In this document: positions 3,089 through 45,060 of the stretch, in pieces
Layout of the letters: each line of letters opens with the position of its first letter
Position numbering within the stretch: the stretch's first letter is position 1
Origin: Nitrospirota bacterium
Lineage (GTDB): Bacteria; Nitrospirota; UBA9217
Assembly: GCA_963818475.1 (NCBI GenBank)
Contig: CAWFSF010000006.1
Coordinates: 864,001-928,000 of the forward strand
DNA length: 64,000 nucleotides
Reading direction: 5' to 3'
The notes under the pieces: model-generated
Databases searched by the model: none
What the model saw: only the letters and a program-made list of their open reading frames with translations
Told to the model about the DNA's origin: nothing
Made by a program: the position numbers and the translations under genes

Positions 3089-3236
3089 TTGCTCAATCCC
3101 GTCATTTCAGAGCGCTGGTTCTGGGCCTACGTTCTGAATGGATACGTAACAACGGTGAAGGGAACCGTGATCAAATATAAGTAGTCCAACAAAAGTGGTC
3201 TGACGAGTCTTCAAACTTCACTTTTCAAACTTCTAA
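3089..3236 (+). repeat. Duplicate of the lipoprotein 3' end and downstream DNA (1848-1995)
   Basis: 148 bp with 6 mismatches. Confidence 0.9.
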
Positions 3237-3286
3237 CTTCTATGTCGTCAAGACCCTAAGTGCCTCACAAAAGTTCTGTTGAAAGC

Positions 3287-4436: not shown

Positions 4437-4693
4437 ACGTCCTGGTAGATTCTGAATCAAGGCTGACATAAAAGTAGGCGTGGACCTATGAGGTTGGATA
4501 TGGTTCGAGAGCGCGATGAGGAAGGTGAAGACCGAGTAACGCAACGTAAGTAACAACGTTATATATCAATAAGCGAATAGACAAACCGATCAGTATAGCT
4601 GAAAGAAAATTATTTTATAAGCTAGCAAAAAGAGAAGCCTCCTGCTAAGAATAAGTTTATTCCGAAACTAAATTCTCGCACAGGAGGCCTCTC

Positions 4694-5986
4694 ATGAATG
4701 ATTCAGATGGTATCAGGCTGCAGGAATTTTGTCAATTCAAGAAAGAGATTCGCGGTTCGACGCAGTATTTGGTCGTAGGACTTGATGTCGCCAAGGAACG
4801 GCATAATGCCTTCTTTGGCACCGCGACCGGTAGGACACTGCACAAAGGGATGTTCTTTGATAATACGTACGATGGTTTCCAAAAGCTCCTGATCCAAACG
4901 GACGCGCTCAAGGTGCAGCATGGCCTGCGCAAAGTAGTTTTCGGACTGGAACCCACGGCCAATTATCATAAACCCCTGGGAGAATATCTCATCAAGGGCG
5001 GACACTTGGTTGTTCTGGTATCTGCTGCAGCCACGTCAAAGAACCGTGAGCTTATGGATGGCCGATGGGATAAGCACGACACCAAAGATGCCGCGAATGT
5101 CGCCGACCTAATCTCCCTGGGAAAATGCCTGTACTACGACTGCCCGGGGGAGGATCTGCGGTCCTTGCGGGGGCTGTTGTCCTTAAAGAAACGGCTCAAA
5201 AAAGAGGAGCACGGTCTCCGGGTCCGCATCCGCAATCAGCTTCTGGCCCAGTACTTCCCGGAAATGGACCAGCACTTCGGTTCGGTAGCGAGTCTGAACG
5301 TGGTCCAGCGATGCATGGATCCCTCGCTTATCTCCCTTATGGAATACGACGAGTTCTGCCGGACGGTATCGCCCGGCAAGGTGAATATGGCGCAGCAGCG
5401 GCGGCTTACGCAGATATGGCGGGCTGCCAAGCAGTCCATTGGCTGCATCGTCGGAGAAGCGGTGTCCGTGGAAGCACAGATCATGGTGATGGGACTTCAC
5501 CAAGTCCGGGAGACGATCAAGACCGTTGAGGACAAAATCGAGGACATCTGCCTGAAGTTTCCGGAGTACTCGTTCCTTCTCATGATTCCCGGTTTCGGTC
5601 CGGATGTGTCTTCCAAGGTCCTGGCTGCCATCGGCGATCCCGAACGCTTTACGAACGGTAAGCAGGTCTTGAAGATGGCCGGATTCGATCTGTGCGCGAG
5701 CCGAAGCGGAAAAACGTCAAATAGCGCCACACCGGTCATCTCCAAGCATGGGAAATCCGATCTCCGCTACGCTCTGTATCAGGCGGCGATCATCAGTTCG
5801 CTCAACTATAAAGAGTTCATCGTCTACCACACGAATAAGATAAAGGGACGGGAGCGGGAAAAAGGGATTGGCACCAAGATGCGGGTGAAACTGGCAGCAA
5901 AACTGTTGATCATCGCTTGGACGCTCATGAAGAAAAAAGAAACATTCGACCCGAAATACCTCAGCCAGGGGGGTAGTAAGGCATAG
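4694..5986 (+). CDS. IS110 DEDD recombinase/transposase
   Basis: VGLDVAK, GLEPTANY, KHDTKDA, IPGFG, SRSGK. Confidence 0.95.
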   Translation: MNDSDGIRLQEFCQFKKEIRGSTQYLVVGLDVAKERHNAFFGTATGRTLHKGMFFDNTYDGFQKLLIQTDALKVQHGLRKVVFGLEPTANYHKPLGEYLIKGGHLVVLVSAAATSKNRELMDGRWDKHDTKDAANVADLISLGKCLYYDCPGEDLRSLRGLLSLKKRLKKEEHGLRVRIRNQLLAQYFPEMDQHFGSVASLNVVQRCMDPSLISLMEYDEFCRTVSPGKVNMAQQRRLTQIWRAAKQSIGCIVGEAVSVEAQIMVMGLHQVRETIKTVEDKIEDICLKFPEYSFLLMIPGFGPDVSSKVLAAIGDPERFTNGKQVLKMAGFDLCASRSGKTSNSATPVISKHGKSDLRYALYQAAIISSLNYKEFIVYHTNKIKGREREKGIGTKMRVKLAAKLLIIAWTLMKKKETFDPKYLSQGGSKA

Positions 5987-6009
5987 GCCGGACTGAAAAT
6001 TGAATTTCG

Positions 6010-6200
6010 ACGTAGAGAGCCCGGGACACAACGTTGAGGCGAATGACCTCGTGAGGGACAATACAGGGCCTCTCATAGAACTTGAGAATCTGGATAAGGG
6101 ATGCTTGGCGGCAACGGCACGCCGGATATTTATAACGCTTAGAGAGCAAGTTCGCTTTACGTGAGAAAGTCGTCGAAGAAAATGCTGATGTCCAAACAGG
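6010..6200 (+). ncRNA. Predicted bridge/seek RNA in IS110-1 right end (boundaries approximate)
   Basis: Conserved with IS110-2 right end; ACAACGT and GGGAC match the target, GGATG and TATAAC match the donor ends. Confidence 0.7.
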
Positions 6201-6304
6201 ACGCATAGGTGAAGTGCGTCTTCAAGAAAAACCGTCAGTTATCGTATTGGAATTTCAGCGAAAGCAAGTTGCACTTGACAAGGGGGCTATAGGATGTCCC
6301 CGAG

Positions 6305-7254
6305 TCGGTTCTGACTACTTAGTATTTGACGAAAAAAATATCGAACATGCGCGAAAACTAATTATTCCACGTGAAAGCAATATGGAGCTTGCCAAAAATA
6401 GGCTAAACAATTTTGCAAATCATACCGGCCTAAAAACGATTTCGGCAAATAATAATGTAAATGTTACTGAACTATTGAACAGATATTTTAGTTGTAGCCC
6501 GCCGTTCGCCGAATCTGGGCAAAAGAAAAATGAGTTTCCCGATGCTATCGCATTAATGACACTAGAAGACTGGGCAAAGCAAAAGAACGTAAAAATTATA
6601 GCTGTTTCTTTAGATAAAGATTGGCACGATTTCGGAAAAGCATCTGAATATATAGACGTTACATCTGATTTAGCTGAAGCAATATCCATCTTCCAGCCTC
6701 ACAATACTGCTTTTGCATTTTGTATCAAACTAGCGAGCGATTTGATGACAACAGCGGGCGAAAAAATACGAGACCCCTTAGAATCGTATTTACGAAATTA
6801 TGTGGAAAATATGGATGTTTATGCCGAAGGAAGTTCTGCGTACTATTTTGAATCTGATTATGTGGAAACAAAATATAATACCTTTGAATTTTTAGTTAAC
6901 CATGAAGACAAGGCACAACTACGGCCGGTACAAATACAGGAAAATACGATTGTTGTAGAGTCTGAACTTACAATAAAGGCAGAAGCATCATCTGATTTTA
7001 CTTTTTCAGTTCATGATTCAATCGATAATGATGATATGAAAATTGGCGATGCAGAGGCTACACGCGACTTCGAATTCGACTCAAAGGTACTTATTACCTT
7101 AACGGGCGATTTCGATAAAGGACTCGATTTTGTAAAGGTAATAGCATTCGAGGTTTTATCTTCGCCAAAGTATGTAGATTTTGGAGAAATCGGCCCTGAG
7201 TGGGGTTACCATGAATTAGGTTATAATGAACTAGGTTATAATGAGTCGCAGTAA
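6305..7254 (+). CDS. PIN-domain (DUF4935-like) protein, probably 5'-truncated
   Basis: PPFAESGQKKNEFPDAIAL and VSLDKDW motifs; no N-terminal DT motif; AT-rich. Confidence 0.65.
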
Positions 7255-16659: not shown

Positions 16660-16829
16660 TTTCAATAATAGATATGAAGGCCAATGTATCAGACGTTTAT
16701 CATTCGAGATTTTGACTCTTGCCTTCCAATACAAATGGGCTTCGTAGCTACGTCTTTTGAGGGAGAACCGGTGTCATATAGGGTCACTTCTTTATCATTG
16801 TCATCATTGTCAAGATCAAAGAAGTGACC

Positions 16830-18742
16830 GTTCGCAGTAACAACTGATTATCTCGCGGGTTCAAGTCCCGCCCAAGGAGTTGTCCGTACACCTTGGTAGC
16901 ACGAGGGAGCGGCGTCTGAGCAATCAGAGGTCGTGAGTTCCCAAACGGCAAAGCTACAGGCCGCAGCGAAAGCGAACCTACACGTAGCCTCGTAACTTAT
17001 TCGGAGATGCCGACCTTGTGGTCAAATGGGGAAGGCCGATGCGCGCTGATTCAGACAACGGAATCGATCTGTGCGATCTCCCGGGGTAGCAGGGGCGGCA
17101 TGCAGCGGAAGATAAGCAGTCCAGTGCTGGAGACCCCATACAGTGATGTTAGAGGAACATCAACCGGTGCGTATAAGGAAACGAAAACGCACTGGGCTGT
17201 ATCGGGAGTCGGAGGGGTCCATAGTATCGTTTGAAGGTATGGGACAACATAACCCTGCCCGAGAAAAGGGACCCTGCTTTGTTCACGCAACCGAAGGAGA
17301 GAGGATGAGGGGATTGCAGAGATGCTAACAACCCCAGATACAATCAGGACACTCCAGAGGAAGCTCTACCGTAAGGCCAAGCAAGAACCGGCCTACCGCT
17401 TTTACGCGCTCTACGACAAGATACACCGGGCCGACATCCTCAGTCACGCCTACCATCTTGTCAGGGCCAACAAAGGAAGCGCCGGCATCGACGGCGTCAC
17501 CTTCGAGGCCATAGAGACCGGAGAAGGGGTAATCGCCTTTTTGGCGGAGCTGCAAGAAGCACTGAAGAGCAAGACCTATGCACCAAACCCTGTAAAGCGC
17601 GTCATGATCCCCAAAGGAGACGGCACAGAGCGTCCCTTGGGAATCCCGACCATTAGGGACAGGGTGGCCCAGATGGCCGTAAAACTGGTCATCGAACCGA
17701 TATTTGAAGCGGATTTTATAGACACCTCATACGGATTCAGACCCAAGAAGTCGGCCCATGATGCAATCGAAGACATATCGTATGCCCTTAACTGCGGTTA
17801 TACGGAAGTCATCGACGCCGATGTGTCCAGGTACTTCGACACCATTCCCCATGCCAAACTCATGGCCGTGGTCGCCGAGCGCATCGTTGACAGTGCGATT
17901 CTGCACATTATCCAGATGTGGCTCAAGGCCCCGGTTATGGAAGTGGACAAGGACGGAACGAAGCGCAACATCGGCGGCGGCAAGGCAAACACCAAAGGAA
18001 CACCGCAGGGCGGTGTCATCTCGCCGCTCCTGGCCAATCTCTATCTGCACCTGTTAGATAGGATATGGCATAAGAAGAAGCTTCAGTATAGGCTCGAAGC
18101 GCGTCTTGTCCGGTATGCCGACGATTTTGTCGTGCTGTGCAGAAAGGGAACTGAGCAGCCGATGGCGGTTGTGCGCCGGGTGCTCGAACGACTGGGACTT
18201 GTACTCAATGAGAACAAGACCCGCATGGTGAACGCCAAGCAAGAAGGCTTCAACTTCCTTGGATTTGAACTTCGTATGGGGAAAAGTCGGAGAACGGGCA
18301 ACCTTTACCCCCTTATACAACCGTCACGAAAAGCCCTGAAGAAGATCAAAGACAGCGTTACCGCTCTTACACACAGGCGGATGACGCCGAAGCCGCTTAC
18401 TATGATAATCGAAGATATCAATACCGCCCTCCGGGGCTGGGTCGGGTACTTTCATTACCGCAATAGCAGCAAGGCGTTCAATCGTCTCAAGTTTCATGTG
18501 GAAGCGCGAGTGCGCACGCATCTGCGAAAGCGGCATAAGATCAAAAGCAGGGCAGCGGGGTTTACCAGGTTCACCAACAGGTCTTTGTACGAGAAGTATG
18601 GGCTCTATAAAGTGCCGACGACAGCGGGCTGGCTGAAGGCGCATGCCTTGCGGTGAAGAACATCGGAAAGCCGTGTGCGGGAAAACTGCATGCACGGTTT
18701 GATGAGGGAGGGCTGGTCAATACGACCAGCTCTCTACTCTAC
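16830..18742 (+). mobile_element. Group II intron inserted at GTGACC/CC of a REP-like hairpin
   Basis: 5' GTTCG; domain V aagccgtgtgcgggaaaactgcatgcacggtttgatgagg; 3' ctactctAC; flanks rejoin to match 14191-14207. Confidence 0.9.
17322..18656 (+). CDS. ltrA: Group II intron reverse transcriptase/maturase without endonuclease domain
   Basis: RPLGIPTIRDR, GTPQGGVISPLLAN, RYADD, LRGWVGYF. Confidence 0.95.
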   Translation: MLTTPDTIRTLQRKLYRKAKQEPAYRFYALYDKIHRADILSHAYHLVRANKGSAGIDGVTFEAIETGEGVIAFLAELQEALKSKTYAPNPVKRVMIPKGDGTERPLGIPTIRDRVAQMAVKLVIEPIFEADFIDTSYGFRPKKSAHDAIEDISYALNCGYTEVIDADVSRYFDTIPHAKLMAVVAERIVDSAILHIIQMWLKAPVMEVDKDGTKRNIGGGKANTKGTPQGGVISPLLANLYLHLLDRIWHKKKLQYRLEARLVRYADDFVVLCRKGTEQPMAVVRRVLERLGLVLNENKTRMVNAKQEGFNFLGFELRMGKSRRTGNLYPLIQPSRKALKKIKDSVTALTHRRMTPKPLTMIIEDINTALRGWVGYFHYRNSSKAFNRLKFHVEARVRTHLRKRHKIKSRAAGFTRFTNRSLYEKYGLYKVPTTAGWLKAHALR

Positions 18743-24915: not shown

Positions 24916-26574
24916 ATGAAAGCGTCGATAGCAAAAATACTTCTCCTTCTTCTGCTGGTATCTTTAACAGCGTGCGGAGGCGGAGGAGGCGGGCTTTCTG
25001 GAGGCGGCGGCTCAGAGGATACTATCGCACCTTCTGTTCCCACCGGTTTGGTTGCGACGGCGAATTCCACGAGCCAAATTACCCTTACATGGAACGCCTC
25101 CACTGATGATGTGGGTGTTGCCGGGTATGACGTTGAGAATGGAATCTTCGTTACAAACACGAGCGAGGTACTTACAAATCTTGCGCCCAGTACACAGTAC
25201 TGCTTTAGCGTAAAAGCACGCGACGCTGCTTATAATTATTCCTCCTCCAGCGCACAAGTCTGTGCCAGCACGCTCAATCCCACCGGCTGGAGTCCCGCGA
25301 TCCAACTCGGCGAACGGAGGGATTCCTTGGATTACGACCTTTATTCCCCGCGCGCTGCCTTGAATGACAGTAATGCGGGTATCGCTGTCTGGGATGACAG
25401 CTATAGGTACTTCCCGTACATAGGACGCATAGTAGCGAACGTCTACAGGAATGGAAGCTGGGGAACGCCTGTCATTATTTCCCGTGATCTGCCGAGCTCG
25501 CACACGCCCAGTCTGGCAATGAATGCGAACGGGAATGGCGCGGCTGTCTGGTCGATGGCGACCAGCACTACCACGGACATAGGGATTGGGGCCAGCCTCT
25601 ATACAGCTGCGACAAACTCCTGGTCAGCCCCGGTCAGGATATGCGATCCGTTCACCGGTTATTTTTCAGCCCCCAAAGCTGCCATGGATTCATTAGGCAA
25701 TGTCGTTGCTATCTGGCTGTATGAGGGGGACGTATGGACAAGCCGCTATAGCGGCAGTGCATGGAGCAGCCCCGAGCTGCTGAGCAGCGGGACGAACTAC
25801 GTGTATTCAGCGGAGCTGAAGATCGGCGGCGATAATAATGCATTCGTGGTCTATTCCGAGGAGACCAGCCCCGGCTTATCTAGTTCAAACATTTTTGCAC
25901 GAATTTACACGGCATCAACCGCCACGTGGGGCACGTCTTCGACCCTGATCGGCAAACCTACCGTCACAACCGATGACGCAGCCAATCCCGTTATTTCAGT
26001 CTATGCGAACGGCGATGCGGTCGTGGCATGGGAAATGACTCATTACAACGGTTCCGCCTATGAATACTCCATCGCGGCCAATTTTTACAGCAGCCTTCTC
26101 TCCTGGCAGACAGCGACGAACGTGACGGCCAGTACAACTGCGTACAAGGAGTTTCCCGCTGTTGCCATCGATGGAACGGGCAATGCTTTTGTCGGGTGGC
26201 AGGAGAACTTATTCCCCGACAGGCAGGGATGGATGAGCAGGTATGATTCCGGTGCAAAAACGTGGAGCCCTGCCGAGCGGTTCGATACAGATGACATATA
26301 TTACGATATCTCGGATATCGCGATCGATGTCGACGGAAACGGAAACGCCCTCTTCGCCTATCGCCAGGGACGGGTGCACACGCGCTGGTACATGACAGCA
26401 TCGGGATGGGCTGCTACGGCATGGACACCGGTCCCGTCCGACTTTGATAATGCTCCCGGATTCAGTCTCGATGTCAACAACACGGGCAATGCTCTCGTGG
26501 TTACGCGTGAGATGGTCAGGGACTACGTGGGGACGTCATGGACGCCTTTCGCAAACCATTATACGAAACCGTAA
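24916..26574 (+). CDS. Lipoprotein with fibronectin type III and propeller-like repeats
   Basis: LTAC; DTIAPSVPTGL..WNASTDDVGVAGY..VKARDAA. Confidence 0.8.
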   Translation: MKASIAKILLLLLLVSLTACGGGGGGLSGGGGSEDTIAPSVPTGLVATANSTSQITLTWNASTDDVGVAGYDVENGIFVTNTSEVLTNLAPSTQYCFSVKARDAAYNYSSSSAQVCASTLNPTGWSPAIQLGERRDSLDYDLYSPRAALNDSNAGIAVWDDSYRYFPYIGRIVANVYRNGSWGTPVIISRDLPSSHTPSLAMNANGNGAAVWSMATSTTTDIGIGASLYTAATNSWSAPVRICDPFTGYFSAPKAAMDSLGNVVAIWLYEGDVWTSRYSGSAWSSPELLSSGTNYVYSAELKIGGDNNAFVVYSEETSPGLSSSNIFARIYTASTATWGTSSTLIGKPTVTTDDAANPVISVYANGDAVVAWEMTHYNGSAYEYSIAANFYSSLLSWQTATNVTASTTAYKEFPAVAIDGTGNAFVGWQENLFPDRQGWMSRYDSGAKTWSPAERFDTDDIYYDISDIAIDVDGNGNALFAYRQGRVHTRWYMTASGWAATAWTPVPSDFDNAPGFSLDVNNTGNALVVTREMVRDYVGTSWTPFANHYTKP

Positions 26575-26600
26575 AACGGACCAAACAATTGGAGACCGCC

Positions 26601-28064
26601 ATGCAAACTAACAGATCTCGCTGGATCAAGTGGACGGAATTGTTCTTTGTCATGCTCCTTCTGGCAGCCTGCAGCAGCGGAGGCGGAAGCCAGAGCGCAA
26701 GCGACAGCGGAGGATCGTCAGACAAACTGAGAAGTGACGGCACGTGGACCCAGGTCAGCGGGGCGACTACTGCTGATCAGCTCGGGACCTACGGCACGAA
26801 GAGTGTACCGGCATCCTCCAACATGCCCGGCGCCCGCTTTTCCTCGATGTCGTGGACCGATGGGAGCGGAAATTTGTGGCTCTTCGGCGGCGGATATTTC
26901 GATTCCGAAAGCAAGCTTCACTATCTGAACGACCTCTGGAAATTCGATCGCGGCAGCCGCGAGTGGACATGGGTGAGCGGGTCCGATACCCCGGACCAAT
27001 GGGGGACCTACGGCACAAAGGGCACTGCCACTGTAGACAATGTCCCGGGCGGGCGCTATGCAGCCGTCTCCTGGATCGACGGGACCGGCAACCTTTGGCT
27101 GTTCGGCGGCACCGGGTTCGACGCATCCGGCAACGATGACGCTCTCAACGATCTTTGGAAATTCGATCCGGTCACCCGCAACTGGACCTGGGTGAGCGGT
27201 TCGGACACGGTCGGCCAGATGGGAACCTACGGCGACAAAGGCGTGGCGGCTCCGACGAATGTACCGGGCGCCCGTGACCAGGCAGTCTCCGGGATCGATG
27301 CGAACGGGATTTTCTGGCTCTTCGGCGGTTTCGGCTACGATTCGAGCACGTTCGGCGGGCATCTCAATGACCTCTGGAAGTTCGATCCAACGAGCGGCAA
27401 CTGGACCTGGGTTAACGGAGCAAAGACCGGCGACCAGCGGGGAAATTACGGCACAAAAGGCACGGCGGACAGCGCCAATGTCCCGGGAGGACGTGATGGG
27501 GCCTTCTTCTGGATCGACAGCAGCGGCACTCTGTGGCTTTTCGGCGGGTATGGCCTCGACTCCAGCCCGATCGGCACGCCGGGTCCTCTGAATGACCTTT
27601 GGAAATTTGACGGCACCAACTGGACGTGGGTGAGCGGGGGGAATCTCATCTCGCAATATGGCTCTTACGGATCGAGAGGCTTCTCATCTGCTTCGAATGT
27701 TCCCGGATCGCGCAATGGCGGAGTATCCTGGATCGACGGTAACGGCAGCCTGTGGCTTTTCGGCGGATACGGTTACGCGAGCCGGCCTAGTGGCGGGGCC
27801 CTGAACGATCTGTGGAAATTCAATCCGGTCAGCGGCGAATGGATCTGGGTGAGCGGAGCCAGCTCCGGCAATCAGTCCGGTTCAGGCACGGTGCCCGGAT
27901 CGCGCATGTACACGCCTGCGTCCTGGATCGATGCGAACGGAAACTTATGGCTGTTCGGAGGATATGGTTTCGACTCCGCCGGCACACTTGGCTGCCTTAA
28001 CGATCTGTGGCGCGCTGCTGTCACTACTCACTGGGTGTGGTGGGCCGCTCCTTCCGTCCTTTGA
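26601..28064 (+). CDS. Kelch-like repeat lipoprotein
   Basis: LAAC; six WID.GNLWLFGG...LNDLWKF repeats. Confidence 0.85.
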   Translation: MQTNRSRWIKWTELFFVMLLLAACSSGGGSQSASDSGGSSDKLRSDGTWTQVSGATTADQLGTYGTKSVPASSNMPGARFSSMSWTDGSGNLWLFGGGYFDSESKLHYLNDLWKFDRGSREWTWVSGSDTPDQWGTYGTKGTATVDNVPGGRYAAVSWIDGTGNLWLFGGTGFDASGNDDALNDLWKFDPVTRNWTWVSGSDTVGQMGTYGDKGVAAPTNVPGARDQAVSGIDANGIFWLFGGFGYDSSTFGGHLNDLWKFDPTSGNWTWVNGAKTGDQRGNYGTKGTADSANVPGGRDGAFFWIDSSGTLWLFGGYGLDSSPIGTPGPLNDLWKFDGTNWTWVSGGNLISQYGSYGSRGFSSASNVPGSRNGGVSWIDGNGSLWLFGGYGYASRPSGGALNDLWKFNPVSGEWIWVSGASSGNQSGSGTVPGSRMYTPASWIDANGNLWLFGGYGFDSAGTLGCLNDLWRAAVTTHWVWWAAPSVL

Positions 28065-39195: not shown

Positions 39196-39225
39196 GGGGA
39201 CATCCTATAGCCCCCTTGTCAAGTG
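39196..39225 (-). mobile_element. Solo IS110 right-end/target junction
   Basis: 30/30 reverse complement of 6272-6301. Confidence 0.85.
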
Positions 39226-39233
39226 GCAATCTT

Positions 39234-40300
39234 GGGGACGTTGTTACTTACATTGCAAAACACTTGACATCGCCATTAGAAGTCGATAATATTCCTTCAT
39301 GCCGCGTCACGCTCGCTTAGACGCCCCCGGCGCCTTGCACCACATCATGGTCCGGGGGATCGATAAGTCAAACATCTTTCGCGATGCAGAGGACAAAGCC
39401 CGCTTTCTTGAGCGTCTTGGGCAAAACGTTCAGGGCTCCAAATGTTCAATATACGCCTGGGTGCTCATGGACAACCATGTTCACCTGCTATTCCGAAGCG
39501 GCCAAGACGGCATCTCAGCCGTCATGAGAAAACTCCTTACCTGGTACGCCCAATACTTTAACCGCAGGCACGGCCGGAAGGGGCATCTGTTCGAAAACCG
39601 GTACAAATCCATCCTCTGCGACGAAGACAACTATCTCCTTGCCCTTGTCCGCTACATCCATCTTAATCCCGTTCGAGCAAAAATCATCCAGACCATGGCA
39701 GAGATGGACAAATACCCCTGGAGCGGCCATCGTGCCGTGATAGAAAAGGCAAAGTACCCGTGGATGGACACGGCAACAGTATTGTCACAGTTCGGAGGCA
39801 CGAAAAGAAAAGCCAGGAATGAATATCGGCGGTTTATGCAGGAGGGCATGGATCAGGGACACGATCCCCAGTTTTCCGGCGGCGGACTTGTTCGGAGCCT
39901 CGGCGGGTGGTCCAATGTCCTCTCTATGAGACGGAAAGGCCATAAGGAGGAAACGGACGAGCGGATCCTTGGAAGCGGCGATTTCGTACATCAAGTCATA
40001 AAAGAAGCGGAAGAGAAGTCGCTGCGGCAGATGAAACTCAAAAGATCGGGGCTGACCCTGATAAAGATCGTCGAGCAGGAATGTAGAAAAGGGCAGGTCA
40101 GCCGGATGGAACTGGAGAGCGGCAGCCGGCGGTCTAAAGTAAGTCAAGCGCGTGCACAGATCGCACGACGCGGCATGAAAGAGCTCGGCCTTTCGGCCGC
40201 AGAGGTTGCGCGACATCTTGGCGTAGCCACATCAAGCATAACGCGGGCAGTTAATAAAATCGAGATTCGAGATACAATGCAACGTAAGTAACAACGTCCC
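39234..40300 (+). mobile_element. Y1 tyrosine-transposase element with 23-bp terminal inverted repeats
   Basis: gggacgttgttacttacattgca (39235-39257) vs tgcaacgtaagtaacaacgtccc (40278-40300), 22/23. Confidence 0.85.
39299..40291 (+). CDS. RAYT-like HUH/Y1 transposase with C-terminal HTH
   Basis: MPRHAR, HHIMVRG, NHVHLL, GHLFENRYKS, YIHLNP, YPWS. Confidence 0.92.
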   Translation: MPRHARLDAPGALHHIMVRGIDKSNIFRDAEDKARFLERLGQNVQGSKCSIYAWVLMDNHVHLLFRSGQDGISAVMRKLLTWYAQYFNRRHGRKGHLFENRYKSILCDEDNYLLALVRYIHLNPVRAKIIQTMAEMDKYPWSGHRAVIEKAKYPWMDTATVLSQFGGTKRKARNEYRRFMQEGMDQGHDPQFSGGGLVRSLGGWSNVLSMRRKGHKEETDERILGSGDFVHQVIKEAEEKSLRQMKLKRSGLTLIKIVEQECRKGQVSRMELESGSRRSKVSQARAQIARRGMKELGLSAAEVARHLGVATSSITRAVNKIEIRDTMQRK

Positions 40301-40570
40301 GAAAGTTCGCATTGTATGTCGTGTCTATCTGCAGTTAATAATAGAATTTCTAGCTCCGGGGTTTTCTGGCAGCGCTTGGATTCGTAATATCATTGTTTTA
40401 TGTTGGCAGAGCTGCCGAAGCCTTACGGGGCTTTAGTACGTTTCTTTTGTTCGCGTTCCTTGGAATTGCAGTTCTAAGGGCAGTCGGATTGATTTCTGGT
40501 GAGCCAGTTTCGTTCTAGGAAGAAAGAAAAGTAGGGACCCGAACGAGTTCATGCGCCATTCAAGCTACAA

Positions 40571-41348: not shown

Positions 41349-42345
41349 TTGCACGCATGCGCTCCAGGACATCCTGCCGGAGATGACGCTAGCGATTCAT
41401 ACCGGTTCCTGGCTTTACTCCGCATCGCACCGTTGTTGGTATCTTCGGTCATTGCTCGCTCGAGTGATACGACTCACTCGGCGGGGGAAAAAACAGTTTG
41501 TGGCGTCTGCAGCACGGTTCACCGGACCTTTTACGATCATAAGATCAAGCGGGTCCGTGATCTTTCTAATGGCGATGCCCGCATCTATCTGGAACTACCG
41601 GTACGACGAGTCCAGTGCCGGAGGTGCGGTAAGGTGAAACAAGAGAAGCTGGCGTTTCTGGCAGACAGTCCGTTTTATACCAAGCGCTTTGCCTTCTATA
41701 TCGGCAAGCGGTGCAGCACCTCAACGATCAAGGATGTTGCCAAAGAGTTTCATCTTGACCGAAGAGCCGTCAAAGAACTCGAAATGCAGTACATGCGGGA
41801 GAAGCTTCGTCGGGCTGGAAACCCCGGACCGAAAGTTATCGGTATCGACGAAATCTCGATCCGCAAGGGCCATACGTACCGGATCGTAGTCAGCGACCTG
41901 GAGCGGCGGCGGCCAATCTGGTTCGGAGGTGAAGACCGCTCGGAAGAAAGCCTAAACTGCTTCTTCGACGAGTTGGGGCCGAAAAAGGCTAGCAAAATAC
42001 GCCTTGCGGTCATGGACATGTGGAAGCCTTTTGAAAAGTCCACACGTCAAGAAAGCTCCGCAGGCAGCCATTCTCTACGACAAGTTCCATATCATAAGGC
42101 ACCTGAACGATGCCTTGGACAAAATTAGAAAGAGCGAATATGCCAGACTGACCGGCAACAGTCGTAAGTTCATCAAGGGTCAGAAATATACGCTTCTCTC
42201 GCATCGCGAGAATCTTACGACGGATGGGAGAAGATCGTTAAAGACGCTTTTGACTGCTAACAAGCGGCTAAACACTGCCTATATCCTTAAAGAGGAGTTC
42301 GGGCAGCTCTGGGACTATCAGTCAGAAGCCTGGGCCAGAAAGTAA
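41349..42345 (+). pseudogene. ISL3 transposase, frameshifted and truncated
   Basis: Zn finger CGVC/CRRC, IGIDEISIRKGHTY, VMDMWKPF, YDKFH. Confidence 0.88.
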
Positions 42346-43046: not shown

Positions 43047-43129
43047 CAATCTTGGGGACATACTATATAGCTCCTGTCAAGAGACCCTTTATTTTGCATG
43101 ATTTTCAATAAGATAATTTTCTGCATCAA

Positions 43130-43345
43130 CTAAGAACACAGTTTTCCTTCCGGCATTCCTGCCGCTATCGCTTTATCGGCGAGTCTCTCGCATTCAGGCG
43201 AACGACGGCTTAATCGTTATATCTATCCGGCGTGCATGGCCGCCAAGAATACCTTATCCAGATTCCATCGTTCAAACGAGAGGCACTGTATTGTCCCGCA
43301 CGAGGTCAACTGCCCTCAACGTTGATGCTCGGGCTCTTGCCGAAA
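43130..43345 (-). ncRNA. Predicted bridge/seek RNA of IS110-2 (boundaries approximate)
   Basis: Homologous to 6010-6200; ATCAACGT matches its own target 8/8. Confidence 0.7.
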
Positions 43346-43378
43346 TCGTTTTTGTGCTTCAGGATCATGCCGCTTTTT

Positions 43379-44660
43379 TCAGCGTTTTCGGATCCTCCTG
43401 CTTGAGATATTTTGGATCGAAGATTCTTTCTTCTTCATCAGCGTCCATGCGATGATCAAGAGTTTTGCGGCGAGCTTGACACGCATCTTTGTGCCGATCC
43501 CTTTCTCCCGCCCGGCCTTTGAGCTTGTTCGTAAAGTAGGCGATGAAGTCCTTGTTCTTGGCGAGGCGATAAGCGCCGCCTGATACAGTCCATACCGGAG
43601 GTCGGCCTTACCCTGTTTGGAGATGACCGGTATCGCGCTGTTTGACTTCTTGCCGCTCCGGTTCGCGCAAAGGCCAAGACCGGCCATTTTCAAGACCTGC
43701 TTCGCGTCGTAAACCGCTGAGGATTACCGATGGCCCCCAGGACTTTCGAAGAGATATCCGGCCCGAATCCCGGAATGCTCAGAAGGTACGTATACTCGGG
43801 AAACTCCAGGCAAGCATCCTCGATCTTGTCTTCCACTGACTTGATGCTTTGGCGAAGCTGCTTCAAACTGTCCACCATGACCTGCGCTTCGAAAAAAGGC
43901 CTCTCCATGGTGACAGATGGATCAACCGCGGCCCTCCAGATCTTGCCACCTTGCGGCCCTTGGATAGCTCATTGTGCCCGGCGCGACGGTACGGCAGAAG
44001 TCATCGTATTCCATGCCAGCGATCTCCGACGGATCGAGGCATTCCCTCACTACTGCCAGGGTTTCCGAGGGACCATAGTGTTGGTCCAGCTCGGGAAATA
44101 CTGCGCGAGGAGTTGGTTGCGAATGCACGCGCTTAAGCCGTGTTCCCGTTTCTTCAGCCGCCGTTTAAGCGCGTTGAGTATACGTACGTTCCGCAGCGTC
44201 ATCAGGGGGTATTCGTAAAACAGGCACTTTCCCTGGGAGATGAGATCGGCGACATTTGCAGCGTCTTTAACGTCATGCTTGTCCCAGCGGCCGTCCAGAA
44301 GCGGCCAGTTGTTCTTGACCGCGACGCCTCCCACAAGAACAACCATGTGCCCGCATTTGATCAGATGCTCCGCCAGGGGCTTGTGATAGTTTGCTGTCGG
44401 CTCGATGCCGAAAACGACTACCGTCAGGCTGTATTGAACTTTTATTCGCTCGACATAAGCGAGCAGCTTTTGAAAGCCTTCAAGCGTATTGTCAAAAACC
44501 AGATTCTTAACCAGAGTTTTGCCACGTGCCGTGCCGAAAAAAGCGTTATGTTTTTCCTTAGCCGCATCAATGCCGACGATCAAATGCTTATCCGAACCGC
44601 GAATCTCTTTCTTCAGTTGAAGAAACTGCTCAAGTCTGATATCATCTACATAGTTCTATA
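43379..44660 (-). pseudogene. IS110 transposase with several frameshifts
   Basis: VGIDAAK, GIEPTANYHKPL, IPGFGPD, KMRVKLAAKLL in different frames. Confidence 0.88.
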
Positions 44661-44807
44661 GAAGCCTCCTGTCTCTTGAATTTAGTTCCGTCATAAACTA
44701 ATTCTTAGCAAGAGGTTTCTGTTTTGGGTAGCTTATGAAAAAATATTCTTTCAGCTATACTGCTTGATTCACCTATGCTCTTTCTACTATACTTTCTACT
44801 ATATAAC

Positions 44808-44952
44808 GTTGATACCTAGCAAGCATTTAGCTTGACAAACCCTACCCTATTTAAAATCACCCCATGCCACGCCAAGCGAGACTCGACGTACCCGGAGCCC
44901 TGTGGGGGCATTGGGGTCACTGAGATACAATGCAACATAAGTAACAACGTCC
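44808..44952 (+). mobile_element. Internally deleted (MITE-like) derivative of the Y1-transposase element
   Basis: ATG at 44864 encodes MPRQARLDVPGAL, followed by gagatacaatgcaacataagtaacaacgtcc matching 40269-40299. Confidence 0.8.
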
Positions 44953-45060
44953 GTACGCAGTAACAACTGATTATCTTGCGAGTTCAAGTCCCGTCCGAGG
45001 AATTGTCCGTACACCTCGATAGCACGAGGGAGCGGCATCTGAGCAATCGGGACGTATGGG
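44953..45060 (+). mobile_element. 5' fragment of a second group II intron
   Basis: gtacgcagtaacaactgattatc..gcacgagggagcggc..ctgagcaatc homologous to 16830-16925. Confidence 0.85.

Follow-up and report, generated by a model that had tools for sequence, protein, structure and literature searches.

What directs an insertion sequence of the IS110 family to its target, and how much of the answer can be read from the element itself? The question is raised by a stretch of 64,000 nucleotides from a Nitrospirota bacterium (GTDB lineage UBA9217; GenBank assembly GCA_963818475.1, contig CAWFSF010000006.1, positions 864,001 to 928,000 of the forward strand), which is called the window here and which is part of contig C6 of an assembly of 4.66 Mb in 7 contigs. 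The window holds two IS110-family elements, named IS1 and IS2 in what follows, each sitting in a short repeat of the kind that flanks Y1 (tyrosine) transposase genes in this genome. The explanation that best covers the data as a whole, and that we consider very probably correct, is that IS1 is a functional-looking IS110-family insertion sequence and IS2 a decayed one, that the right end of each carries a guide RNA of the bridge (or seek) type, and that the guides point to Y1-flanking repeats that resemble repetitive extragenic palindromic (REP) sequences. The parts of the two elements are as follows, in window coordinates.

4558-6297, plus strand: IS1, a complete IS110-family element including the GT core, with a 98.6% identical copy on contig C2 against which the homology stops exactly at both boundaries
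4560-4693, plus strand: left end of IS1, non-coding, 134 nucleotides (nt)
4694-5986, plus strand: recombinase gene of IS1, 430 amino acids, with a DEDD RuvC-like domain and a Tnp domain
43058-44807, minus strand: IS2, a diverged IS110-family relative whose recombinase gene is broken and whose RNA region is intact

The GT core of IS1 is found at 4558-4559 at the left junction, which reads aACAAC-GT|TATATA, and at 6296-6297 at the right junction, which reads ataGGAT-GT|cccc. The left end is the shorter of the two, since the right non-coding end runs to 311 nt and closes with TTGACA-agggggctataggat-GT. The second full copy, on C2, has an RNA region identical to that of IS1 and is placed in gtgTCAAC-GT-CCCTgag, again with GT at both junctions, and the empty target sites hold a single GT. 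The elements have a core dinucleotide at both junctions without any longer target duplication, which is the mark of the IS110 family. IS2 repeats the layout of IS1, with minus-strand junctions tATCAAC-GT|TATATA and ataGTAT-GT|cccc, and the pieces of its recombinase gene are spread over three reading frames. The identity of IS1 and IS2 is about 70% by BLAST over some 1580 nt, and 82% as mean column identity in a MAFFT alignment of the aligned region with flanks, and we therefore take them as diverged relatives and not as copies of one element.

The recombinase of IS1 matches Pfam DEDD_Tnp_IS110 (PF01548) with E = 1.8e-19 (70.5 bits against a threshold of 29) and Transposase_20 (PF02371) with E = 5.9e-16 (59.1 bits against 21.3), and at 152.5 bits it passes the cut-off of 140 for the NCBIfam equivalog NF033542, "IS110 family RNA-guided transposase". 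A profile of 12 homologues finds, among solved structures, the IS621 recombinase (8wt6, E = 1e-21) and ISCro4 (E = 1e-18). Residues D31, E86, D129, D132 and S338 are invariant in all 12 aligned homologues and align with D11, E60, D102, D105 and S241 of IS621, which are reported as its catalytic residues in PMC11208158; the IS621 numbers are those of that paper, and the structure chain numbering is offset by 2. A 430-residue IS110-family recombinase was what the preliminary description, made from the letters of the window without database searches, had called at this place, and Pfam, NCBIfam and the aligned DEDD and Ser residues agree with that call.

To ask whether the right end is more than a spacer requires relatives. 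A protein-seeded scan with one genome per species gave 79 loci, mostly from metagenome-assembled genomes of Nitrospirota and Desulfobacterota, with recombinases 47-97% identical. Left ends were located independently of the target guide, by a GTTATA(T/A) start 70-175 nt before the start codon, and this sequence opens the left end in 46 of the 57 loci examined. The terminal GT is present in 38 of the 38 right ends whose nhmmer alignment reaches the final GGATGT of the model. These two counts uphold the GT-core subfamily that the preliminary description had proposed. An nhmmer profile of the IS1/IS2 region 6005-6140 is matched at near full length in 66 of the 88 loci collected by then, as 60 distinct sequences, and in those 66 loci the region is placed 3' of the recombinase gene. 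The predicted RNA is composed as follows.

6003-6154, plus strand: predicted bridge (seek) RNA core, conserved in 66 loci, in which the target-binding and donor-binding loops are each framed by an outer stem and an inner one
6013-6074, plus strand: target-binding loop module, outer stem 6013-6022/6066-6074 and inner stem 6035-6039/6047-6051 (helices 1 and 2)
6079-6152, plus strand: donor-binding loop module, outer stem 6079-6084/6147-6152 plus 6088-6091/6141-6144, inner stem 6107-6112/6117-6123 (helices 3 to 5)

The fold was examined on an alignment of 58 sequences, called A2. RNAalifold recovered three stems from it and missed the outer stem of the donor loop, which was added by inspection before all five helices were counted. 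In the resulting structure 93.5% of 1738 cells are in standard pairs, as against 87.3±0.4 in shuffled alignments, and in 15 of the 30 pairs both partners have changed; neither value is reached in any of 500 shuffles. The both-side changes span 130 cells, compared with 36±10 after shuffling, and sliding the 3' partners by 1-3 columns makes the pairing fall to 27-50% of cells. The predicted shape, two internal loops in series, is the target-loop and donor-loop layout described for bridge RNAs, and the stems GAGAGCCC/GGGCCTCTC and GAGG/CCTC, with which the preliminary description had enclosed the target segments, are present. Rfam 15 gave no match when the window was scanned at gathering score, nor when 5950-6300 was scanned at E ≤ 1.

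Within the loops lie the segments that would read the two DNA partners.

6026-6034, plus strand: left-target guide ACACAAC+GT, in the same sense as the left flank and core
43327-43319, minus strand: left-target guide of IS2, CATCAAC+GT
6054-6059, plus strand: right-target guide AGGGAC, reverse complement of GT+CCC(T)
6099-6103, plus strand: left-donor guide GGATG, matching the right end GGAT and the first core base
6133-6136, plus strand: right-donor guide TAAC, reverse complement of the core GT plus TA of the left end

The guide segments named in the preliminary description, in part shorter or longer than those above, are all found where it put them: ACAACGT at 6028-6034, ATCAACGT at 43326-43319, GGGAC at 6055-6059, GGAT(G) at 6099-6103 and TATAAC at 6131-6136. 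It had proposed that such guides change together with the DNA they face, and across the collected homologues this is found for the left-target, right-target and left-donor guides. For the left-target guide, 43 distinct pairs of guide and own left flank, compared at 7 positions each, are equal at 238 of 301 non-core positions, while re-paired flanks give 151±7 with a maximum of 180, and 0 of 10000 shuffles reach 238. Seven of these pairs are perfect (7/7) and 20 match at 6/7. By position, from -9 to -3, the matches are 24, 34, 27, 36, 37, 37 and 43 of 43, so that the covariation is strong family-wide at -8 and from -6 to -3. The guides behind these counts differ widely (TGGTTTA, TATGGAC, AATAAGC, TAGAACC, TCACTCC and others), each fitting its own flank.

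For the right-target guide, right ends were taken from the nhmmer alignment reaching the terminal GT, and the reverse complement of the guide was compared with the five bases after GT. It is equal at 113 of 155 positions (n = 31), a value that 0 of 10000 shuffles reach, the shuffled figure being 92.8±3.6; positions +1 to +3 match in 29-30 of 31, +4 in 18 and +5 in 7, with CTTC, ATCT and CCCG as the informative cases. The left-donor guide has the form G-N-ATG, and its N, which may be G, T, C or A, is the base found in the right end TAG-N-ATGT in 38 of 38 loci, counting own-genome copies. The right-donor guide behaves differently. TAAC is kept everywhere, preceded by TA, CG, GA, TG or GG while the left end stays GTTATA, and most relatives have CGTAAC or GATAAC. 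What remains of the right-donor segment TATAAC first proposed is consequently TAAC, the reverse complement of GTTA (core plus 2 nt), but not its leading two bases, which vary without a change in the left end.

The target that these guides describe can be inspected in the window in its empty state, around a Y1 gene that resembles those of the REP-associated tyrosine transposases (RAYT), and also beside IS2.

39234-39258, minus strand: left inverted repeat of a Y1 element; its unoccupied target is ACAACGTCCCC (39234-39244)
39299-40291, plus strand: RAYT-like Y1 transposase gene, 330 amino acids (Pfam Y1_Tnp, E = 5.9e-13, 49.4 against a threshold of 23)
40278-40301, plus strand: right inverted repeat of this Y1 element; its unoccupied target is ACAACGTCCCG
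44863-44952, plus strand: remnant of a Y1 element, its first ~17 codons and its right repeat, with IS2 sitting in its left repeat

The repeats around 39299-40291 are inverted copies of gcaaYgtaagtaACAAC-GT-CCCC, both unoccupied. In the right repeat short inverted arms, ATACAATGC and GCATTGTAT, surround the site, and the target there would sit in the loop of a hairpin. The protein scores 68.2 against NCBIfam REP_Tyr_transpos, below the cut-off of 80. IS1 itself sits in a solitary repeat. The preliminary description had the elements parasitising the ends of Y1 elements, and the wider context fits: in this genome 4 of 4 full-length Y1 genes (65-100% identity) have inverted repeats bearing CAACGTCCC about 40 bp outside each gene end, and in other genomes a RAYT-like gene stands directly beside the element in 10 of 79 loci. 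The genome also has two gene-less inverted doublets and several single repeat copies. Exact CAACGTCCC sites number 51 in the genome, with about 36 expected by chance, and roughly 25 of them are in a recognisable repeat context. REP repeats are given as typically above 100 copies per genome in PMC2817692; with about 25 recognisable copies the repeat is a low-copy one in this genome, short of the high-copy dispersal typical of REPs.

How such an element might express its recombinase and RNA is suggested by its two termini.

6275-6280, plus strand: TTGACA, the -35 half of a candidate junction promoter, 17 nt from the right terminus
4560-4565, plus strand: TATATA, the -10 half of the candidate junction promoter, directly after the left GT

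When the ends of IS1 are joined across one GT, the sequence reads TTGACA-17 nt-TATATA. TTGACA is found at exactly that spacing in 31 of 38 distinct right ends, shifted by one base in 5 more, and with one mismatch in 2 more. Junction promoters are described in both IS110 and IS1111 members (PMC11187229; PMC12288879). If circle formation, promoter activity, RNA processing, and the geometry and chemistry of pairing are carried over from IS621 and ISEc11, a cycle may be proposed in which the element would excise as a circle and the right and left ends, joined across one GT, would form a sigma-70 promoter. This promoter would transcribe the DEDD/Ser recombinase gene and then an RNA of about 150 nt, structured, with two internal loops. 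The first loop would pair with the target, its 5' side (N7+GT) having the same sense as the left flank and its 3' side being complementary to GT and 3-4 nt of the right flank, and the second would pair with the donor junction, GGAT+G on one side and GT+TA on the other. The recombinase would then exchange strands at GT, and the element would be inserted without duplication. For IS1, the recombinase and the RNA at 6003-6154 would join the donor, right end-GT-left end, to the target ACACAACGTCCCTCA, and the preferred natural target would be ..ACAAC-GT-CCC.. in the REP-like inverted repeats of RAYT-like Y1 genes and of gene-less doublets.

Several observations weigh against this guide-RNA explanation and should be seen together. 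A promoter and terminator scan of 4450-6400 found no plus-strand sigma-70-like promoter and no terminator in the integrated copy. The folding energies of single sequences are unremarkable, with z = +0.26 for IS1 and -2.16 for IS2. No covariation is seen for the right-donor guide, since the left end hardly varies. Within the window, co-variation comes to one position in each of two guides, the left-target and the left-donor, and the co-variation that the preliminary description had drawn from IS1 and IS2 is carried by the family-wide signal, far beyond chance, but not by the pair alone. The C2 copy has its identical RNA in a site reading TGTCAAC-GT-CCCT, and position -7, the one that differs between IS1 and IS2, is therefore tolerant of mismatch. 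Flanks of the individual copies match the left-target guide at 5/7 for IS1 and 4/7 for C2, so single sites are imperfect, or have drifted. On the sampling side, the shuffle controls treat loci as independent and ignore relatedness, and the 11 of 57 loci without GTTATA(T/A) were omitted, about 4 of them having short flanks and the odd cases including L014, L015, L024, L026 and L053. Finally, the bridge RNA is here a prediction from sequence, and a look-up of sequencing runs listed none for RNA.

This last point also favours a reading in which the conserved right-end region acts as DNA, either as a protein-binding site or as a copy of the target used in synapsis, and no RNA guide exists; guide segments identical to the flanks are what a DNA-level "target copy" would give as well. 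Yet the compensatory changes hold five helices paired, in 15 of 30 pairs, as is expected of an RNA and not of a duplex DNA site. The right-target segment is moreover the reverse complement of its flank and the left segment has the same sense, which is the strand geometry of bridge RNAs, and homologous recombinases have solved structures with such an RNA according to PMC11208158. We regard the DNA reading as highly improbable. A closer question is what the difference between the guides of IS1 and IS2 means, that is A or T at -7 and G or T in the donor guide, which could be neutral drift in a decaying copy and no retargeting, both elements being aimed at the same REP-like family with tolerance of mismatches. 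The IS2 recombinase gene is frameshifted, the IS1 copy with identical RNA occupies a site that bears T at -7, and -7 matches in only 27 of 43 pairs across the family, all of which suits drift. The strong family-wide covariation at -8 and at -6 to -3 does not, and neither does L027, an independent relative in another genome that has the guide CATCAAC of IS2 together with its GTAT donor pair (GGTATTC with TAGTATGT); the state seen in IS2 is shared and is therefore an inherited, coherent variant. Drift is possible as the explanation of this one difference, and on balance we doubt it.

The remaining alternative concerns classification and leaves the guide RNA in place: the element may belong to the IS1111 group proper and not to a separate IS110-type lineage with a 3' RNA. 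Its right end of 311 nt exceeds the left of 134 nt and its RNA lies 3' of the gene, as reported for IS1111 (PMC11208160; PMC11187229), and the protein is long, at 430 amino acids. For the IS1111 group, Durrant et al. (PMC11208160) describe right ends longer than left ends, with a bridge RNA predicted in the former in 93% of cases, and subterminal inverted repeats of 7-17 bp. The RNA and the longer non-coding end are indeed 3' of the gene here, but subterminal repeats of that length are not seen, the inverted arms that flank GGAT-GT-TA having 3-7 bp, with 4 bp in 13 of 25 distinct end pairs and 7 reached in 2 of 25. The donor loop is a simple internal loop, which also speaks against the group, and some non-IS1111 elements are reported to have a 3' non-coding region as well (PMC11187229). 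Because the arms are only 3-7 bp, we file the elements under the IS110 family, without assignment to the IS1111 group, although membership in that group is a serious possibility, if somewhat less likely than not.

Among known systems, IS621 reportedly has its natural target in REP sequences, to go by the title of Choi 2003, and IS4321/IS5075 are said, by title again, to have the terminal repeats of another transposon as their target. The elements described here resemble IS621 and ISCro4 in having a DEDD and Ser recombinase with all five catalytic residues aligned, and resemble IS621 further in the predicted target and donor loops, each with its left guide in the sense of the DNA and its right guide complementary, in the 2-nt core at both junctions, in the candidate promoter across the joined ends, and in a natural target that is REP or, here, REP-like. 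They differ in that the RNA follows the gene, in the right end, whereas that of IS621 is in the left end, in a GT core where IS621 has CT, and in a protein of 430 amino acids compared with 326-341 in IS621/ISCro4; sequence similarity to IS621 is weak, with phmmer E = 9e-14 over the C-terminal domain. ISEc11 has a 3' non-coding region that yields its seekRNA (Siddiquee et al. 2024, PMC11187229), and a guide RNA from that side of the recombinase gene is what our elements would share with ISEc11/IS1111, together with a circle that abuts the ends and makes a -35/-10 promoter and with insertion without duplication; the subterminal inverted repeats of 3-7 bp are short for IS1111. Similarity searches add little to these comparisons: the ISEc21 protein aligns with the IS1 recombinase over the N-terminal 112 residues only, at 29% identity, and a tblastn search of plasmids gave 881 matches, all in the band below 60% identity, of which the 30 matches listed are at ≤38% and the full-length ones among them at 20-29%.

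With respect to the target, IS621, ISPpu9 and ISPpu10 are established cases of IS110-family elements that insert into REPs (PMC12288879). The account there of ISPpu9/ISPpu10 from Pseudomonas putida gives insertion in REPs and REP doublets, a fixed end dinucleotide and scattered partial modules, all of which have their likeness here. The core of ISPpu9 is AG, in contrast to GT here, and its additional modules, which have repeated end boxes as their limits, are mobile in circular form (PMC12288879), whereas the relics in our genome have irregular left breakpoints. IS4321/IS5075 provide the likeness of an IS110/IS1111-type element specific for the terminal repeat of another mobile element, but the element that receives the insertion here is a RAYT-like one of the Y1 (HUH) type, whose hairpin repeats are REP-like, and not a DDE transposon of the Tn3 family.

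Publications already cover the mechanism, an RNA placed 3' of the gene, the promoter at the joined ends and insertion into REPs (PMC11208160, PMC11187229, PMC12288879). The family is a further lineage of the bridge/seek-RNA mechanism published in 2024, insertion into the terminal repeats of other transposons was known before, and the clade may already be listed in the supplements to the bridge-RNA papers, such as Supplementary Table 5 of PMC11208160. Knowledge of the mechanism is unchanged by it. What it offers is a natural family that counts about 60 distinct RNAs, drawn from Nitrospirota, Desulfobacterota and others, and over 30 different left-target guides; its common features are an RNA 3' of the gene, a simple two-loop shape and a GT core. 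Such a family could be used for comparison in the engineering of bridge recombinases and in building an Rfam-type model, which would be useful because Rfam 15 has no match, and it documents specialisation on the terminal repeats of Y1 elements outside Proteobacteria.

A few relatives depart from the GT core. A GA sub-branch is made up of L014, L026 and the metagenome loci L110, L111 and L113, in which the left-target guide ends in GA-T instead of GT. L110 has GA in the left-target, right-target (GAAATCT) and right-donor (ATATC) guides, with a right junction GGAT|GAAATCT. In L014, which is the same element as L113, the left junction reads GA, as do the left-target and right-donor guides; its right junction and its right-target guide read GT. 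In L111, GA is found solely in the left-target guide and GT elsewhere, and the junctions of L053 read AT (left) and GT (right). Relatives in the genomes of L014 and L026 place the left boundary at GT|TATATATGGG; further copies of L014 and L026, sought in their own genomes, were not found, both being single copies. An "AT" core had been considered for L014 and L026 and was rejected, as four metagenome loci show the register N7+GA+T.

A mismatched core would be expected, once replicated, to leave a different core at each junction, and the GA/GT loci, very few in number, are possible natural intermediates of a core switch. If these intermediates are real, donor and target cores need not match in vivo, and the core could evolve guide segment by guide segment via heteroduplex junctions. 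It is a rather unlikely extension that the whole lineage is a dedicated hyperparasite of RAYTs and their REP doublets forming hairpins (REPINs), with variants that record a change of core dinucleotide in a bridge recombinase. Another variation of the family is seen in L038, L040, L042, L043, L046 and L051, where a gene for a protein of 323 amino acids with DUF3991 and Toprim_2 domains is located between the recombinase gene and the bridge RNA (for example L040:3895-4866). This conserved gene is natural cargo inside an IS110-family element.

Besides the full copies, the genome contains six relics of IS1 that are right ends only, with lengths of 350, 293, 254, 88, 43 and 26 nt, and all of them retain the terminus.

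C5:632872-633221, C5:187635-187927, C5:609604-609857, C5:179161-179247, C1:303527-303569 and window 39200-39225: IS1 right-end relics
39200-39225, minus strand: the 26-nt IS1-type right-end relic of the window, including GT, which adjoins an intact, unoccupied target, that in the left repeat of the intact Y1 gene

The relic of 293 nt is exactly the bridge RNA plus the right end, beginning at the first conserved base of the RNA, and three of the relics adjoin truncated Y1-transposase genes. No comparable left-end-only relic of IS1 itself was seen in its own genome. Because the left breakpoints are irregular and three are within Y1 genes, the relics look like deletions that ran from the adjacent Y1 gene into the element, and not like mobile modules of the ISPpu9 type.

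Remains of mobile elements are clustered from 39 to 45 kb of the window. They include an ISL3-family transposase fragment of 259 amino acids (DDE_Tnp_ISL3, zinc ribbon, helix-turn-helix), placed between the Y1 element and IS2 at 41349-42128. A group II intron matches Rfam at 16862-17096 and 18666-18742, and of its 5' part, 16828-16925, a second copy of 98 nt with 91% identity is at 44951-45048, where it begins right after the right repeat of the decayed Y1 element beside IS2. Just right of IS1 is the gene for a PIN_12 domain protein, 6214-7254, whose longest open reading frame (ORF) starts inside the right end of the insertion sequence, so that translation probably begins instead at the ATG near 6382.

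Elsewhere in the window, 400-1610 and 3200-3240 are filled with dense GAAGKKT arrays of 7-nt period on both strands (repeat families D1 and D12; inverted repeats I4-I11), and 26740-27980 consists of five to six tandem repeats of 219 nt, or 73 codons, within an ORF of 508 amino acids at 26538-28064.

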